From NCBI GenBank assembly GCA_902796055.1, contig CADBNM010000073.1, positions 1-47,404 of the forward strand: a stretch of DNA of 47,404 nt, read 5' to 3'. Under the pieces are notes generated by a model, which had not been told where the DNA came from, ran no database searches, and was given only the letters and a program-made list of their open reading frames with translations. Shown here piece after piece: positions 12,411 to 47,404 of this stretch (the stretch's first letter is position 1; every line of letters starts with the position of its first letter). This DNA is from Oscillospiraceae bacterium (lineage in GTDB: Bacteria; Bacillota; Clostridia; Oscillospirales; Acutalibacteraceae). A program made the translations under genes and the position numbers.

Positions 12411-12683
12411 GGGGGTGCGAATGTGTCGCCCGGCAGCGCTGTGCGCTGAGTGATATTCGCCATCGGCGAGTGATATATTGCTACGCAATGTGATATTGTG
12501 CTTCGCACAGTAATATTCGATTTCTAAGAACTCGAGTTGAGGTGGCGGAACAAAGTTTCGCAATTTAAATCGGGTGAGGGCAGAGCCCTCCATTAACTTT
12601 TGCGAAGCGAAAACATCATTTGCGCTTTAGCGCATACATCATTACACAAACTGTAACATCACTTGCCGCAGGCAAACATCACT
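12411..12683. repeat. hairpin-array repeat family, copy B (two opposed arrays around a GC-hairpin core)
   Basis: Left array: 9-mers AGTGATATT / AGTGATATA / TGTGATATT / AGTAATATT at 12449, 12469, 12489 and 12509 (exact 20-nt phase), separated by 11-nt palindromes. Core AAATCGGGTGagggcagagccctCCATTAACTT at 12568-12599. Right array: AACATCATT / TACATCATT / AACATCACT / AACATCACT at 12612, 12635, 12655 and 12675. Confidence 0.85.
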
Positions 12684-37941: not shown

Positions 37942-40917
37942 TTATAGCGTTGTAATTGTCTTAACATCACTCCAAGGACCTACCACTAATTTTCCGCTGA
38001 ATGTGTAATAATATTCTCTTGCTCTTACATAGTATGTTCTTCCGGAGCCCCACTGGTCAGCATGCATTACCGAGCCATTTTTTCGGTAAGTAATGCATAT
38101 GTTATTACCTTTGTTTGAAAATGCTTTATTATCACTTAATTGCATTTGGTGGTTGGTAGAACGGTTAAACTTAATATCGAACTTGCCAAAGTCGAGATTA
38201 ACTAATTTAACTATAGGTTTGTTCGGTTTCGTATACTGCCAGCTCTCATAGTTTTTACTGCCGTCGTTCCAATATACTTTATTGCCCACCTTTTTATAAG
38301 TCCTTATACAGTAGTCAACAAATACATCTGATTTTGACAATCGCGGAATAATCATGGAATTTTTAGTGGTGTTTTTGTATTTTACCCATTTGTGTTTACT
38401 GTTGTTATACCTGTAAACCGCATAACCGCTTACATTTTTAGCCTTAGCCCAATTAACTTTAATTGATGTCGCCGAATAACTGACAGCTTTTGCACTTACA
38501 ACAGGTGCAGGTCTTATCTGTAAAGTCTTTTTAATTGTACCGCTGTAATTGCCTTTAAACTTTATTACTATTGTGTAATTACCCACATTTTTGTGACCGC
38601 CCGAAATAGTTATGTTGTAATCCGTCCCTTTTTTATAGTTTGCTTTAAGATAATAATCTTGCAAACCGTAAGAAGTCATAGCCTGTTTGTGGTCGTAGTA
38701 ATACGGCACCGGCACAATCGCTTTGCCTGTATATGAGCACACAGTATCCAAATAGCAGTTTGTAAGTTTTTTAGGCGAGATTTTAAATGTTTTGCTCATA
38801 CTGCCTTCGTACATATCACCTTTGAAAGTTACTGTCACTTTTGCCGTGCCTGCATTTATATTGTTGCTGTAGGCTACAGTGTAATTTGAACTGTCAATAA
38901 CACTTCCTGTGCTGTCTTTCACAGTAACGGCAGGCTTATTTGCTTTGCCCGAATAAGTGTAAGTGCTCTTAGACAATACAATATTTTTCGGTGCGTATAT
39001 TATTGAAGTCGAGCCTTCTGCGCCACAAACCGAGCATTTGGACTTTATTATTTTGCCGTTTCTTTGGTAAGCCGCTTTTGTTTTAATAATGTTTGTAGAA
39101 TTATAACTGTGCTCCGCAAGCGGCAGGGATTCTGTGTAATAGTTATAACAGCGAGAACAGGTATAAGTATTTTTACCCCTTGTAGTACAAGTTGAATAGG
39201 TAGTGCTCGTTTTTTGGTAGTTGTGACCCAAAGCGGCAATATCTTCATAATAACTATTATCACAACGAGAACAAGTATATTTTTGTTTGCCTTTTGAAGT
39301 GCAAGTGGGATTGGTTGTAACTACAGCATTGTTGTAACTGTGACCTAAAGCGGCAATAGTTTCTCCGCCGTAACTGTCACCACAGCGAGAGCAGGTGTAT
39401 TTATCTGTTTTACCTGTTTTAGTGCAAGTAGCGGCAAAACCCGCAGTTTTAATATAATCGTGACCTAAAGCGGTAATAGTTTCTCCGCCGTAACTGTCAC
39501 CACAGCGGGAGCAAGTGTATTTATCTGCTTTACCGGTTTTAGTGCATGTGGCGGCAGAACCCGCAGTTTTAATATAATCATGACCTAATGAGTTTGTATA
39601 ATCATCTTTGTAAACATCAGAGCACCTTGAACAAGTATAGGTAGTATAGCCTTTTTCGGTGCATGTCGGGGCAGTAATAGTTGATTGATAATCGTGACCT
39701 AATGCTGCTTCGGTTTCTTCTTGCTCTATAAAAATCGTGCCACATGCTTTACAATGACTGCCTTGTGTAAGCCCGCTTTTGGTGCAGGTCGGCTCCGTAG
39801 CAACATCTATTTCTTCAACATGATTGCAAATATAATTGCGGTTGTATTTTTTTGCATATTCATAAACATTTTTCGAACCGTTAATTATAATAGTTGTGTT
39901 TTTGGGAATTGTATCCGCCAAATAATAAATACTGCAGTTTTCGCTTTTAATATCAATGCTTGATAATTTACTGCAAGCGTAAAATACATAAGCACCAATA
40001 CATGTAACAGAATCTGGAATTGTGATGCTTACCAAACTGCTACAATCTTGAAATGCATAATGATTAATGGTTGTAACTGAATTCGGAATCGTTACGGTTG
40101 TCAAACCGCTACACCATTCAAATGCACTATGACCAATGTTTGTGACTGAATTCGGAATCGTTACGGTTGTCAACCCGCTACACCATGCAAATGCACCTTT
40201 TTCAATGCTTGTAACAGAATCGGGAATTGTTACACTTGTTAAACCGCTACAAGCGCAAAATGCATAATCGCCTATACTCGTTACGCTGTCGGGTATTGTC
40301 AATGTTCCTGTGATTCCACTGCAACATCTAAAAGCAGAATCACCAATGCTTGTAACAGAAGCCGGAATAGTGATATTTGTCAAACTCCTGCAACCGTAAA
40401 ATGCATAATTGCTAATGCTTGTGATAGAATCTGGAACCGCTATTTCTGTAACTAATTTTCTATTAAGATATAGGGAGGCTTTGTTAGTATAATAAAAAGG
40501 ATTTGCATACTGCCCGTCAAAATCTATTTTACACCAAGATTCAATGCTACTAATATTTATCTCTGCTAAATCATTATTATCTTCAAACGCATATTTACCA
40601 ATACTTTTTATAGTATCGGGAATGGTGATGCTTATCAAACCACAATCTTCAAACGCACAACTGCCAATATGTGTTACACCGGATTCAATGATTACTTCTT
40701 TAATGTTAGTTCTAAAAAACAGACTACCATATGATGAATAATTATACATTTCACCGCTACCGCTTATTATAAGCGATTTTGTAATGGAATAAAAAGTATA
40801 TGTGACATTATCGCCGCATTTACCACTACTTGACAAAGCATTAGAAGTTATTTGCAGTCCTGCAAAGGTGCTGCAAATCATTACGATTACTAAAATAACA
40901 CTTAATAATCTTTTCAT
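37942..40917 (-). CDS. large secreted surface protein: BspA-type leucine-rich repeats, six to seven Cys/His modules, MBG-like Ig modules and an Fn3-like domain
   Basis: Signal peptide MKRLLSVILVIVMICSTFAGLQITSNA. About nine ~23-aa repeats IPDSVTSIGxxAFxxCSGLTxVT. Modules PTCTxxGxxxYTCSRCxxxY...LGH. YTYSGKANKPAVTV...NAGTAKVTVTFKG. Fn3-like SIKVNWAKAKNVSGYAVYRYN. ATG 40917 with an AAAGGAGA SD overlaps the upstream stop as TAATG. Confidence 0.85.
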   Translation of the reverse strand: MKRLLSVILVIVMICSTFAGLQITSNALSSSGKCGDNVTYTFYSITKSLIISGSGEMYNYSSYGSLFFRTNIKEVIIESGVTHIGSCAFEDCGLISITIPDTIKSIGKYAFEDNNDLAEINISSIESWCKIDFDGQYANPFYYTNKASLYLNRKLVTEIAVPDSITSISNYAFYGCRSLTNITIPASVTSIGDSAFRCCSGITGTLTIPDSVTSIGDYAFCACSGLTSVTIPDSVTSIEKGAFAWCSGLTTVTIPNSVTNIGHSAFEWCSGLTTVTIPNSVTTINHYAFQDCSSLVSITIPDSVTCIGAYVFYACSKLSSIDIKSENCSIYYLADTIPKNTTIIINGSKNVYEYAKKYNRNYICNHVEEIDVATEPTCTKSGLTQGSHCKACGTIFIEQEETEAALGHDYQSTITAPTCTEKGYTTYTCSRCSDVYKDDYTNSLGHDYIKTAGSAATCTKTGKADKYTCSRCGDSYGGETITALGHDYIKTAGFAATCTKTGKTDKYTCSRCGDSYGGETIAALGHSYNNAVVTTNPTCTSKGKQKYTCSRCDNSYYEDIAALGHNYQKTSTTYSTCTTRGKNTYTCSRCYNYYTESLPLAEHSYNSTNIIKTKAAYQRNGKIIKSKCSVCGAEGSTSIIYAPKNIVLSKSTYTYSGKANKPAVTVKDSTGSVIDSSNYTVAYSNNINAGTAKVTVTFKGDMYEGSMSKTFKISPKKLTNCYLDTVCSYTGKAIVPVPYYYDHKQAMTSYGLQDYYLKANYKKGTDYNITISGGHKNVGNYTIVIKFKGNYSGTIKKTLQIRPAPVVSAKAVSYSATSIKVNWAKAKNVSGYAVYRYNNSKHKWVKYKNTTKNSMIIPRLSKSDVFVDYCIRTYKKVGNKVYWNDGSKNYESWQYTKPNKPIVKLVNLDFGKFDIKFNRSTNHQMQLSDNKAFSNKGNNICITYRKNGSVMHADQWGSGRTYYVRAREYYYTFSGKLVVGPWSDVKTITTL
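39340..39579 (-). repeat. two tandem 120-nt near-identical repeats inside the surface-protein CDS
   Basis: 39340-39459 versus 39460-39579 differ at about 8 positions by my count. Each encodes one GHDYIKTAG.AATCTKTGK.DKYTCSRCGDSYGGETI.AL module. Confidence 0.9.
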
Positions 40918-41519
40918 TACTTTTTCTCCTTTTTCCAATTATCAAAGTCATAGGCTAATTTACTGCCTTTGTCTTTTGTTAAAAAACCTATTATTTTTTG
41001 AACATCATTATATTGTTCATTCTCAATAGATGTCCAGTGTATGTCATTTTCTCTGATTGCAATCAATGTTTTTTCTTTAATTCCACATTCTTTAGCGAAT
41101 GAGTTGGGCAAATCTTTAACATCTTCAGCCAAACAGTCTAAAATAGTGCTGTCAAGCGGACAGTCGCAATATTTCTCATCAATGTCAATTATATGCCCCT
41201 CGTATTTGTTCAAAACAACCAAATATTTTAAACTCATATTCACCAATTTTTGAATTGCACCAAATTCAACATTTTCATATTTGGTCTTTAAACACTTAAT
41301 AAATCTTTTTGATGATTTTGTTTGACCATCATTTTTTCTAATTAAATCGCACAGTTTATTTATCAACGCCCTATTTTGCAAAATGTAAAAAGGCAAGTGA
41401 AACCTACCTGTAAGCACATCTCTATGTGCTCGAAAAACACAATCGTAAATCCTATCTTTATCTTTGTGTTTAGGTATGACACTAACTGTTAAAAACTCAC
41501 TCATTTTCTTTTCATCCAT
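40917..41519 (-). CDS. hypothetical cytoplasmic protein (200 aa), no family recognised
   Basis: ATG 41519 (MDEKKMSEF) is preceded by GGAGGTG. No signal peptide or TM segment. Motifs GAIQKLVNMSLKYL and CDCPLDS. Translationally coupled to the LRR protein. Confidence 0.7.
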   Translation of the reverse strand: MDEKKMSEFLTVSVIPKHKDKDRIYDCVFRAHRDVLTGRFHLPFYILQNRALINKLCDLIRKNDGQTKSSKRFIKCLKTKYENVEFGAIQKLVNMSLKYLVVLNKYEGHIIDIDEKYCDCPLDSTILDCLAEDVKDLPNSFAKECGIKEKTLIAIRENDIHWTSIENEQYNDVQKIIGFLTKDKGSKLAYDFDNWKKEKK

Positions 41520-41849: not shown

Positions 41850-42392
41850 TCACTTTATATATTTCCTCAGCCTTTTTGCGAGCAGTATCGCCATCGCCAT
41901 TTTAATAGCGTCGGGCAGGATAAACGGGAAAACGCACCAGCCGAGCACCGTCATTAGCGTTACTGCGCCGTTGGCTTTAATATACAGATACATAAACCAA
42001 GCCGTGCCGAAGGCGTAGCAAATTAAAAGTCCCAAAACAAGCGAGATAATCTGTATATGCAACTTTTCGCCGAAAATCGAAGTGAGCAGCCAATAAATCG
42101 CGCCGAGCAGTATAAAGCCTAAAATGTAGCCGCCCGTGTTGCCTGCAAGCACTCCTATTCCGCCCTTAAAGCCTGAAAAAACCGGAATACCTGCCGCGCC
42201 GAGCGCGATGTAAACCAAAATCGAATAAAAGCCGTTTCGCCCGCCGAGCAGTGTAAGCGAGAGGAAAATGGCGAGCGTTTGCAGGGTAAAAGGCACCGTC
42301 GTCGGTATGCTCACCCAAGAAAAAAGTGCGATTATCGCGCTGAATATTCCTATATATGCAATATCTAAAGGTTTAAATTTTTTCTCTTTCAA
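41850..42392 (-). CDS. bioY: biotin transporter BioY (ECF S-component)
   Basis: Six-TM protein with the GGYILGF motif typical of BioY. TTG start at 42392 after GGTGA. A BirA operator lies upstream. Confidence 0.88.
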   Translation of the reverse strand: MKEKKFKPLDIAYIGIFSAIIALFSWVSIPTTVPFTLQTLAIFLSLTLLGGRNGFYSILVYIALGAAGIPVFSGFKGGIGVLAGNTGGYILGFILLGAIYWLLTSIFGEKLHIQIISLVLGLLICYAFGTAWFMYLYIKANGAVTLMTVLGWCVFPFILPDAIKMAMAILLAKRLRKYIK

Positions 42393-42409: not shown

Positions 42410-42463
42410 ATTTTAAGCGCAAAAATAAAAAATGTCAACCAAAATTTTAAATTTAGGTTGACA
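42410..42463 (-). promoter_or_regulatory. bioY promoter overlapped by a BirA operator
   Basis: Inverted repeat TGTCAACC-N15-GGTTGACA (42433-42463). Minus-strand TTGACA (42438-42433), 17-nt spacer, TAAAAT (42415-42410). Confidence 0.8.
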
Positions 42464-42496
42464 ATAATTTTAAGTAATTTGTACTCGGGCAAAGCC

Positions 42497-46304: not shown

Positions 46305-46916
46305 TTACTCGTGCATTTTCTTTGCAGGGACACCTACATATGTTCCTTTTTGTTCAATGCTTTTAACAACCACTGCTCCGGCTCCTATCATACACTCCTC
46401 GCAAATTTTTACGTCGTTGCTTACGGTAGCACCTGCGCCAATCCAAGTTTTGTTTCCTACAGTAACTGTCCCTGCGCATTTTGCGCCTACTGAAATGTGG
46501 ACAAAATCTCCTATCGAATTGTCGTGTTCAACAAGAGCCGAGGAATTGATGATGCAGTGCTTTCCAATTATTGAGTTAGGATTAATAACGGCATTTGGCA
46601 TTATAACGCTACCTTCACCTATAGAGGTATTAATTGAAGATATTACTGCGCTCGGATGAATGGCTGTATACCATTTTACTCCCTGCATTCTCTCTGAGAT
46701 TGCTTCTCTTGCTTTTGCAGAGCCTATGGCGATTATGAAATAGTTTTCTTTATATTTGCGAAAATCAGTATCCTCTCCTAAAATCGGCAGGCTTAAAAAT
46801 TCGCTTCTTTTGTGGTTAGCTTCAAGAAATCCGACTATATGGTCGCCTGACTTTTGTATTATATCGGCAACAACCTTTGCGTGACCGCCTGCACCTATAA
46901 TTACAACCTTTTTCAT
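46305..46916 (-). CDS. NeuD/PglD-family sugar O/N-acetyltransferase (left-handed beta-helix, hexapeptide repeats)
   Basis: MKKVVIIGAGGHAKVVADII N-terminal Rossmann-like domain, followed by hexapeptide repeats (IGEGSVIMPNAVI..IGKHCIINS..). Start set to ATG 46916; the ORF-track extension to 47072 runs through the leader. Confidence 0.88.
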   Translation of the reverse strand: MKKVVIIGAGGHAKVVADIIQKSGDHIVGFLEANHKRSEFLSLPILGEDTDFRKYKENYFIIAIGSAKAREAISERMQGVKWYTAIHPSAVISSINTSIGEGSVIMPNAVINPNSIIGKHCIINSSALVEHDNSIGDFVHISVGAKCAGTVTVGNKTWIGAGATVSNDVKICEECMIGAGAVVVKSIEQKGTYVGVPAKKMHE

Positions 46917-47092
46917 ATCTATAACCGCCTTAAAGAAAAAATGCACAGCCGAAGCTGTGCAAAAAAACACAATGCTCCGATTGCTGCGACACAAATCAAA
47001 TATACGAGCATAAAAGGTATACCAATAAAGAGCATGCATTTTTATCGAAAATACATACCTTATTATGCTCAAAAAAAATATGATTATGTCGC
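46917..47092 (-). promoter_or_regulatory. structured 5' leader L2 (paralog of L1) with UUCG-loop intrinsic terminator
   Basis: Minus-strand pairings: P1 gcgacauaauca (47092-47081) / ugauuugugucgc (46998-46986), P2 gagcauaa / uuaugcuc, P3 aagguau / auaccuu, P4 guauuuu / aaaaugc. Terminator ugcacagc-UUCG-gcugugca (46961-46942) plus UUUUUU. Confidence 0.6.
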
Positions 47093-47098
47093 AACACG

Positions 47099-47127
47099 AT
47101 TATAACATAGTTGAAATCTTTAGTCAA
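47099..47127 (-). promoter_or_regulatory. sigma-A-type promoter driving leader L2
   Basis: Minus strand: TTGACT (47127-47122), 17-nt spacer, TATAAT (47104-47099). Confidence 0.65.
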
Positions 47128-47159
47128 ACTATAAAAAACGGAAGTTAAGTCCGACTGCT

Positions 47160-47404
47160 ATTGCGCAGAGATTCGGTAAAGAAGTTTTACCTCAAAATTT
47201 TAGAATTTCGCACAAATAGTGCAAGTAAAACCCTCGGCAGGCGTTAGCCTTTCCGAGGGTTCAGCGTGTAGAAAAACCTTTTTCTACACGCTGAGCAGAT
47301 GTTGAAAGAGTGAGATGAAATCCGCCAACTGAAACGCTGAGGCAAGGGATAAAAATTGCTAAGGATAATAAGGTTTTGTTTATTCTTTTTTGCAACTGCT
47401 TCAA
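47160..47404. repeat. ORF-free mosaic repeat region (two strong hairpins plus a 35-nt unit related to 27001-27032)
   Basis: Hairpins ccctcgg...ccgaggg (47231-47259) and a 15-bp perfect stem cagcgtgtagaaaaa-cc-tttttctacacgctg (47262-47293). Unit GTTGAAAGAGTGAGATGAAATCCGCCAACTGAAAC at 47301-47335. Confidence 0.6.

Follow-up and report, generated by a model that had tools for sequence, protein, structure and literature searches.

What controls the NeuD-type acetyltransferase gene near the end of contig CADBNM010000073.1, from an Oscillospiraceae bacterium of the Acutalibacteraceae (assembly GCA_902796055.1)? The stretch analysed, called the window below, covers positions 1 to 47,404 of this contig (47,404 nucleotides, nt). 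An earlier note, made from the sequence, had placed a candidate cis-regulatory RNA on the minus strand immediately upstream of this gene (copy 2) and had recognised the same element about 5 kb away, upstream of an adhesin-like operon (copy 1). The element is a real, previously uncatalogued structured RNA, found in more than 100 genomes of gut and rumen Clostridia. Read from its sequence, it would be a promoter-proximal leader of about 165 nt that governs the gene behind it through conditional intrinsic termination, as an attenuator in which one pivot strand has alternative partners and an effector favours a pseudoknot; this reading was given a probability of about 0.55.

The promoter, the stems P1 to P4, the bulge, the linker, the terminator, the Shine-Dalgarno (SD) sequence and the ATG described for copy 2 were all recovered base for base (Table 1). 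The region 47097-46925 folded with -56.7 kcal/mol (z = -5.7; none of 200 dinucleotide shuffles was as stable), and the minimum-free-energy fold contains P1 to P4 and the terminator. The promoter matches the consensus at 11 of 12 positions, carries the TG extension and was the sole such site returned by a promoter scan of 46850-47404; transcription would start at about 47093-47097, immediately 5' of P1. The U-run of the terminator stops 19 nt upstream of the NeuD-type open reading frame (ORF). The TIGR03570 (NeuD) profile aligns with residues 3-199 of the protein begun at ATG 46916, which confirms that the extension of this ORF to 47072 is an artefact of reading through the leader. Just 5' of the promoter, two hairpins (GCGTGTAGAAAAAGGTTTTTCTACACGC and CCCTCGG...CCGAGGGTTTT; 47220-47310, minus strand) look like the terminator(s) of the preceding gene, itself cut by the end of the window; as such they would make copy 2 an insulated transcription unit.

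A covariance model of the leader was built from 111 sequences. Over the window it found exactly two sites, copy 2 with 125 bits (E = 8e-21) and copy 1 with 116 bits (E = 3.8e-19); the two genes that share the element are unrelated. The next match had E = 0.085, and no further copy was found in the window. The two copies are 76% identical, and their P1 and P2 sequences differ, with pairing kept in both. A recent local duplication, named beforehand in the earlier note as an outcome that would count against the element, was rejected on these compensated differences and on the wide distribution of a covarying family.

That family was collected with the pattern AAAAATRCAWGCTC-N30-60-GCRRC-N3-5-GAGC, derived from five sequences, which gave at least 120 matches in species-representative genomes. 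Nearly all of the matches listed lay in metagenome-assembled genomes (MAGs) assigned to Oscillospiraceae, Acutalibacteraceae, Ruminococcus, 'Eubacterium', Eubacteriales, Clostridia, Monoglobus and Fimenecus, and the hosts whose guts were represented were goat, deer, buffalo, rabbit, horse, mouse and human; a few matches, inside ORFs (Yersinia, Methylocystis), were due to chance. At E <= 1e-7, 106 members were aligned, with a mean pairwise identity of 64%. As far as sampled, the family is confined to gut and rumen Oscillospirales (Clostridia). Two good members (L036, 2469-2658, 102 bits; L085, 6980-7152, 110 bits) stand on MAGs labelled Bacteroides/Bacteroidaceae and reflect either mis-binning or transfer beyond the Clostridia. 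In other metagenomes (L003, L004-L009, L017/L018) the same leader precedes homologues of the 200-amino acid (aa) protein that is encoded behind copy 1. Phage origin was rejected, the same pattern giving no match in 2.9 million viral contigs.

A known RNA family was likewise rejected. At gathering scores, the 4227 covariance models of Rfam 15 gave no match at the leader copies; only the Gut-1 RNA (RF01706) was found in the window, at 12448-12521 on the plus strand (61.7 bits against a gathering score of 50). With the search of the leader region relaxed to E <= 10, nothing rose above noise: the best match had 23 bits where the cut-off is 100 bits. The best-scoring member, L022, gave nothing relevant, and 18 further loci yielded only tRNAs and one unrelated SAM riboswitch elsewhere. 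Literature searches by sequence string and keyword returned no description; they covered 200 of the 408 supplementary files of a human-microbiome RNA catalogue (PMC8040213), in which an unnamed entry is possible. With no Rfam family, at least 106 aligned members elsewhere and strong covariation, the proposal of a new cis-regulatory leader RNA was upheld and strengthened, and the element was rated as a widespread attenuating leader RNA of a new class whose structure is well supported.

Promoter and RNA form one conserved unit. Counted from the first G of P1, TTG stands at -35 to -33 in 89-103 of 108 members and TGnTAnAAT at -15 to -7 in 92-100 of 108. Since this sigma-A-type extended -10 promoter lies at a fixed distance, the RNA should begin at P1. 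The nested structure is 94.5% paired in the model-fitted alignment, as against 31-53% in slid controls; both sides change at 26 of its 35 pairs, and its covariation score of 0.425 (0.204 in shuffles) was reached by none of 500 shuffles. P1 is 98% paired, with both-side changes at five of eight pairs, one of which switches between G-C, C-G, U-A and A-U and another between A-U and C-G. Departures from pairing in P1 are U-G at two pairs (37 and 37 members), with other non-pairs numbering 0-7 at any pair; as nearly all of them are U-G, selection acts on the RNA. Both sides change at all nine pairs of P3 and at all nine of the terminator, which is 99.9% paired. P4 is 91% paired, and the pairs beside its U-tract covary (A-U with G-C, U-A with C-G). 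P2 is too variable to align yet is always present: its own arms pair with -10.05 kcal/mol against -3.89 kcal/mol for arms exchanged between members, the own arm being the better partner in 100% of 105. Such complete variation with constant pairing indicates long-standing selection on the fold. Among the unpaired parts, an AAUA motif is conserved in the 5' internal loop between P1 and P2 (columns 48, 49 and 52, A, U and A, at 89-97%), as are parts of the bulge and the linker. No pairing partner of the AAUA loop was found; for extra tertiary pairings (AAUA with the bulge, the P4 loop or the linker; the P4 loop or the bulge with the linker), own strands were no better than strands exchanged between members. 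Like a riboswitch, then, the leader has a structured domain kept by compensatory changes, together with conserved unpaired nucleotides in the AAUA loop and the core.

The bulge and the linker, which the earlier note had taken for separate motifs, proved to be the two strands of one covarying long-range helix. One strand, the core (AAAAAUGCAUGCUC), comprises the 3' strand of P4 and the bulge and is the reverse complement of the other, X2, which lies in the linker (GAGC..UGCAUUUUU; GAGC-n-AUGCAUUUUU), with a bulge of 1-3 nt allowed. The helix of 14 pairs is 97.1% paired in the alignment, as against 33-65% when slid, and its computed energy in copy 2 is -12.1 kcal/mol. At the variable core position (R7:Y) the pairs were G-C in 67-75 members, A-U in 25-27 and G-U in 10-13, with at most one mismatch (75, 27 and 10 in the 112 members parsed, with no A-C). 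Most telling, since the pattern fixes most of the core, are tandem or nearby copies that only the model found (L065, L069, L056, L035). They have altered cores with the pairing preserved: in L069, AAAAACGCAAGCUC pairs with GGGGCAAGCGUUUUU (U to C opposite G), and in L056, CAAAUUCC pairs with GGAGUUUG.

The core:X2 helix joins an internal loop to the 3' tail and has H-type pseudoknot topology. It and P4 are mutually exclusive Watson-Crick helices, because both use the same A-tract. Within them an invariant A5 tract faces two invariant U5 tracts. U.A-U triples would be geometrically possible, and the displaced U5 tract could sit in the groove of A5:U5; that all three tracts are invariant can be explained just as well by a single strand that needs two alternative partners.

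X2 and the linker are also complementary to the 5' strand and loop of the terminator (for example UCGGAGCUAUGC with GCGUAGCUUCGG). This candidate antiterminator is 85.9% paired across the family, as against 22-67% when slid, and its strands pair with -13.3 kcal/mol in their own leader, -11.6 kcal/mol between members and -5.8 kcal/mol after shuffling (p = 1e-10). When transcripts are cut before the 3' strand of the terminator, 99% of them contain it in their minimum-free-energy fold, and 82% contain P4, with which it coexists. The duplex of copy 2 (-12.3 kcal/mol) is likewise in the fold of the transcript cut at that point. Computed alone, terminator and antiterminator average -16.0 and -13.4 kcal/mol over the family, and in 73% of members the antiterminator is part of the unconstrained local fold. 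In copy 2, local folding reached -16.6 kcal/mol with the antiterminator against -13.1 kcal/mol with the terminator alone, and copy 1 favours the terminator (-16.0 against -13.3). As expected of an attenuator, both window copies have their own promoter and a G+C-rich hairpin with a U-run directly 5' of an ORF, and the mutually exclusive antiterminator would use the 5' strand of the terminator, with modest covariation, weaker than in the other helices. The antiterminator is best described as a well-supported complementarity rather than a proven pairing.

Downstream of the U-run, an SD sequence and an ORF start within 100 nt, mostly 4-30 nt, in 82 of 114 copies. An ORF that starts a few nt after the U-run leaves no room for a promoter of its own, so its expression depends on read-through. 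The 82 first ORFs comprise 17 BspA-type leucine-rich repeat (LRR) proteins (LRR_5), five members of the 200-aa family that precedes LRR genes, seven or eight small Xre-type helix-turn-helix proteins (HTH_3; 63-68 aa, apparently monocistronic, with no common partner among the second genes), seven proteins with N-terminal zinc ribbons and more than 45 singletons. Among the singletons sampled were an 1809-aa Flg_new/ricin-lectin/dockerin protein, a CHAP and SLH protein, GLUG and M26-like proteins, a DUF6273 protein, AMP-binding and Condensation enzymes, and many proteins without a Pfam match. This cargo is accessory, is rich in secreted and surface proteins and gives no clue to a ligand. The leader does stand before the NeuD-type gene, but this enzyme is an idiosyncratic cargo: it is the sole representative of its type among the 82 ORFs, and conservation of the leader with the gene was rejected, the closest homologue (67% identity, in three assemblies) having a 113-nt intergenic region without the element. 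The cell-envelope theme suggested in the earlier note receives loose support from the enrichment of secreted repeat proteins and is otherwise conjecture, as is the suggestion that the two genes of the window would be co-regulated. More than one copy can occur in a genome, as in the window and in one MAG that holds both L035 and L053. Tandem cassettes 25-400 nt apart were seen at L065 (6451-6830), L069 (4769-5330), L035 (7567-8000), L056 (7588-7999) and L051 (5694-6094), with a promoter recognisable for each copy in L065, L035 and L056; the upstream copy has no ORF and would yield only a terminated RNA of about 170 nt. At L063 (7022-7119) a decayed remnant retains only the 3' strand of P1, the linker and the terminator.

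These features suggest the following switch. During transcription P4, P3, P2 and P1 would form first, and X2 would then act as a pivot between the core and the 5' strand of the terminator. If P4 keeps the core, X2 would pair with the nascent 5' strand of the terminator, and this antiterminator would let the polymerase read through (ON). Alternatively, X2 could dock on the exposed GCUC through its GAGC toehold and displace the 5' strand of P4, giving a long-range H-type pseudoknot; the 5' strand of the terminator would then be free, the terminator would form and transcription would stop at the U-run (OFF). The competing helices are similar in computed stability, so that a modest input may tip the balance. 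An effector that binds the P1-P4 domain, with the unpaired AAUA loop and the core as its likely contacts, would favour the pseudoknot, and the leader would be an OFF switch that answers a cell-wide signal common to all copies in a genome. Given the mixed cargo with its many surface proteins and the large size of the domain, a small diffusible signal, e.g. a second messenger, is slightly favoured over a dedicated RNA-binding protein; this is the least supported step.

Several points weigh against such a switch. It was deduced from sequence alone, RNAfold cannot score the pseudoknot and the balance between the helices is approximate. The search pattern fixes most of the core and the GAGC, and their conservation is to that extent built in, about six copies being independent of the pattern; the covariation counts, moreover, ignore phylogeny. 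Both-side changes in the antiterminator were not above those in shuffles (107 of 500), and its support lies mainly in conserved complementarity. No coherent function was found among the 82 downstream ORFs, which is unusual for metabolite riboswitches; if the leader is a riboswitch, such heterogeneity can be reconciled only with a global signal, a second messenger for instance. About 10 of the 114 copies have no same-strand ORF nearby, and some copies form tandem cassettes with a separate promoter for each, which would also fit an RNA with a role of its own.

How far, then, do other explanations go? The nature of the input is the least certain part. A new Oscillospirales riboswitch class, in which a pseudoknot, possibly triple-helical, senses a small signal such as a nucleotide second messenger and turns off a regulon of LRR/surface-protein and Xre genes, can be put forward tentatively. 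The same architecture might, more doubtfully, be read by a dedicated RNA-binding protein (of the PyrR, TRAP or LicT type) or by a NusG-paralogue antiterminator, through the AAUA loop, the core or the U-tracts, and would then not be a riboswitch. A heterogeneous, accessory and surface-related cargo without a metabolic theme, several copies per genome as in a regulon and a short, highly conserved unpaired motif would all suit a protein; no protein is consistently encoded beside the element, however, the neighbours differing at every locus inspected, and the large pseudoknotted domain exceeds the needs of most protein-binding attenuators. Protein and small-molecule input share all of the evidence and are not separated here. 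It is unlikely that the element is instead a free-standing gene of about 165 nt for a trans-acting small RNA (sRNA), with read-through incidental. Its strong conserved promoter and strong terminator, the copies without a nearby ORF and the separate promoter of each tandem copy (L065, L069, L035, L056) would fit such a gene, and riboswitch-derived sRNAs are known; yet only those same 10 or so of 114 copies look like independent units, the SD and ORF abut the U-run in the 82 copies counted above, where expression can come only by read-through, and a conserved antiterminator competes with the terminator. The sRNA and cis roles are not exclusive.

Very unlikely, in our judgement, is a spreading promoter-plus-leader repeat that is no more than a constitutive insulator or 'leaky terminator', with RNA stability, not switching, as the reason why its structure is kept. 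That idea would account for a multi-copy cassette before unrelated genes and for a promoter within the conserved unit; without switching it is hard to reconcile with three exclusive helices that are all kept (P4, core:X2 and X2 with the 5' strand of the terminator), two of them with compensatory changes, or with a P2 that is always paired despite complete sequence variation. Least probable of all is an invertible DNA switch of the kind found at cwpV and flgB of Clostridioides difficile, in which P1 would be the inverted repeats of a recombinase and inversion would toggle termination. There, as here, a promoter and a surface-protein gene are separated by inverted repeats, and termination in the leader decides the outcome; P1 flanks about 110-130 bp between promoter and ORF, the core, once reverse-complemented, resembles X2 and the targets are often surface proteins. 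Against this, the repeats behave as an RNA helix, with the U-G-type mismatches given above that RNA pairing predicts and symmetric DNA repeats do not, and P2, P3, P4 and the helix that crosses the boundary of P1 covary. The inverted form of the pattern gave 42 matches in metagenome contigs, none of them real by the covariance model (forward copies there were not counted), and six independent assemblies of one locus had a single orientation. One of the inverted-pattern matches, on a marine metagenome contig (L167, 6520-6700), lies in tandem GAGCATGTATTTTT / GAGCATGCAACATTT units, is due to chance and is unrelated to the leader. An attenuator with a pivot strand remains the preferred reading.

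Such an attenuator has well-known relatives in logic. In the S-box (SAM-I), T-box and PyrR pyr leaders of Firmicutes, one strand has two possible partners, the 5' half of the terminator and the sensing domain, and its sequestration allows termination. These leaders are likewise promoter-proximal, with an intrinsic terminator just before the ORF and a shared strand; the leader described here has no Rfam 15 match to them, its cargo is not metabolic and its sequestering helix would be a long-range pseudoknot with the apical internal loop instead of a closing P1 stem. In ZTP (pfl)-type riboswitches, too, a 3' strand beyond a linker pairs back into the domain and the terminator competes for that strand or its neighbour, but fold and consensus differ, there is no Rfam match and the additional P4 hairpin here makes three competing helices. 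SAM-II, SAM-V and preQ1-II riboswitches share a topology with it: a stem and a U-rich loop are followed by an A-rich strand whose partner is a U-rich strand on the 3' side. These riboswitches are small, and for the most part they act by sequestering the ribosome-binding site; the SAM-II and preQ1-II models gave no Rfam match, and only the topology and the U5/A5/U5 tracts fit, triples not being readable from sequence. The c-di-GMP-I and -II riboswitches of Clostridia are terminator leaders before adhesins and other surface proteins, with several per genome and sometimes in tandem. Their cargo profile is comparable, but their covariance models do not match the leader even at E <= 10. By covariance models, the sole available test, the leader belongs to none of the families compared.

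Copy 1 (fold z = -7.4) sits downstream of the terminator of bioY and upstream of the genes for the 200-aa protein and then the 998-aa LRR protein. The 200-aa protein belongs to a family of about 90 clusters (P0121-P0213), often encoded directly 5' of BspA-type LRR genes, with no match in Pfam or NCBIfam; its invariant residues include an AH.D motif and C.CP.D. A confident AlphaFold model of it is all-helical (pLDDT 92.7, pTM 0.90) and has no neighbour in the PDB (best E = 3.4). The LRR gene contains long in-frame DNA repeats, with periods of 69 nt (39970-40641) and 120 nt (39136-39718), that match LRR_5 units and a second repeat type. An inverted repeat, TTGTCAACC-N15-GGTTGACA (42433-42464, minus strand), lies immediately 5' of bioY (41850-42392), where it overlaps a TTGACA-like promoter, and presumably resembles a BirA-type biotin operator; the covariance model of the leader gave a chance-level match of 16 bits at this site.

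Table 1. Coordinates of the two leader copies and of the genes behind them
Feature	Position	Strand	Basis or remark
Copy 2 -35 hexamer TTGACT	47127-47122	-	sequence and promoter scan
Copy 2 extended -10 TGtTATAAT	47107-47099	-	TATAAT at 47104-47099; 17-nt spacer to -35
Copy 2 P1, 5' strand GCGACAUAAUCA	47092-47081	-	minimum-free-energy fold and sequence
Copy 2 5' internal loop, P1/P2 junction	47080-47071	-	U-rich in copy 2
Copy 2 P2, 5' strand GAGCAUAA	47070-47063	-	perfect 8 bp with 47013-47006
Copy 2 P3, 5' strand AAGGUAU	47061-47055	-	pairs with 47020-47014
Copy 2 P4, A/U-rich apical hairpin	about 47054-47037	-	minimum-free-energy fold
Copy 2 X1, P4 5' strand GUAUUUU	47054-47048	-	local pairing with the A-tract of the core
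Copy 2 core AAAAAUGCAUGCUC	47043-47030	-	P4 3' strand and 'bulge'; partner of X2
Copy 2 bulge, 3' side	47035-47021	-	sequence
Copy 2 P3, 3' strand AUACCUU	47020-47014	-	sequence and family covariation
Copy 2 P2, 3' strand UUAUGCUC	47013-47006	-	fold, sequence and family arm pairing
Copy 2 P1, 3' strand UGAUUUGUGUCGC	46998-46986	-	sequence and family covariation
Copy 2 linker AGCAAUCG and pivot strand X2 (GAGCAUUGUGUUUUUUU)	46985-46961	-	X2 at 46977-46961; may pair with the core or the 5' half of the terminator
Copy 2 candidate antiterminator	46979-46950	-	CGGAGCAUUGUG (46979-46968) with GCACAGCUUCG (46960-46950)
Copy 2 intrinsic terminator, DNA TGCACAGC-TTCG-GCTGTGCA	46961-46942, then T6 to 46936	-	8-bp stem
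Copy 2 terminator as RNA	46961-46936	-	UGCACAGC-UUCG-GCUGUGCA and U6
SD-like AAGGCGG	46931-46925	-	precedes ATG 46916
NeuD/PglB/VioB-family acetyltransferase ORF	ATG 46916 to stop 46305	-	TIGR03570 3.9e-68; PglD_N and Hexapep
Copy 1 of the leader	41752-41533	-	covariance model, fold; Pfam on downstream genes; extent also given as 41719-41533
Copy 1 promoter TTGACT-18-TAGAAT with TG	within 41752-41533	-	promoter scan
Copy 1 P1	41716-41701 with 41606-41591	-	sequence
Copy 1 core	41650-41637	-	sequence
Copy 1 X2	41583-41570	-	sequence
Copy 1 terminator	41568-41545	-	sequence
200-aa protein gene	40917-41519	-	no Pfam or NCBIfam match
998-aa BspA-type LRR protein, signal peptide	37942-40938	-	Pfam LRR_5 6.4e-72

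The Oscillospirales (Ruminococcaceae, Oscillospiraceae and Acutalibacteraceae), abundant and for the most part uncultured, degrade fibre in the guts of animals and humans, and to our knowledge almost nothing is known of how their surface proteins are regulated. The leader defines a regulon that can be read from genome sequence, with dozens of unrelated accessory genes among which BspA-type LRR genes are the most frequent. It is an orphan RNA class, unusual in that the competition for one strand is three-way, and a test case for covariation in expression platforms. Being a well-defined RNA, it is also a handle for finding the controlling signal, and the core, X2 and the antiterminator give clear mutational predictions. 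A small-molecule effector would make it a new riboswitch class and a protein effector a new attenuation system. If the riboswitch reading is true, the genes it regulates would be relevant to adhesion and to the colonisation of hosts and particles.

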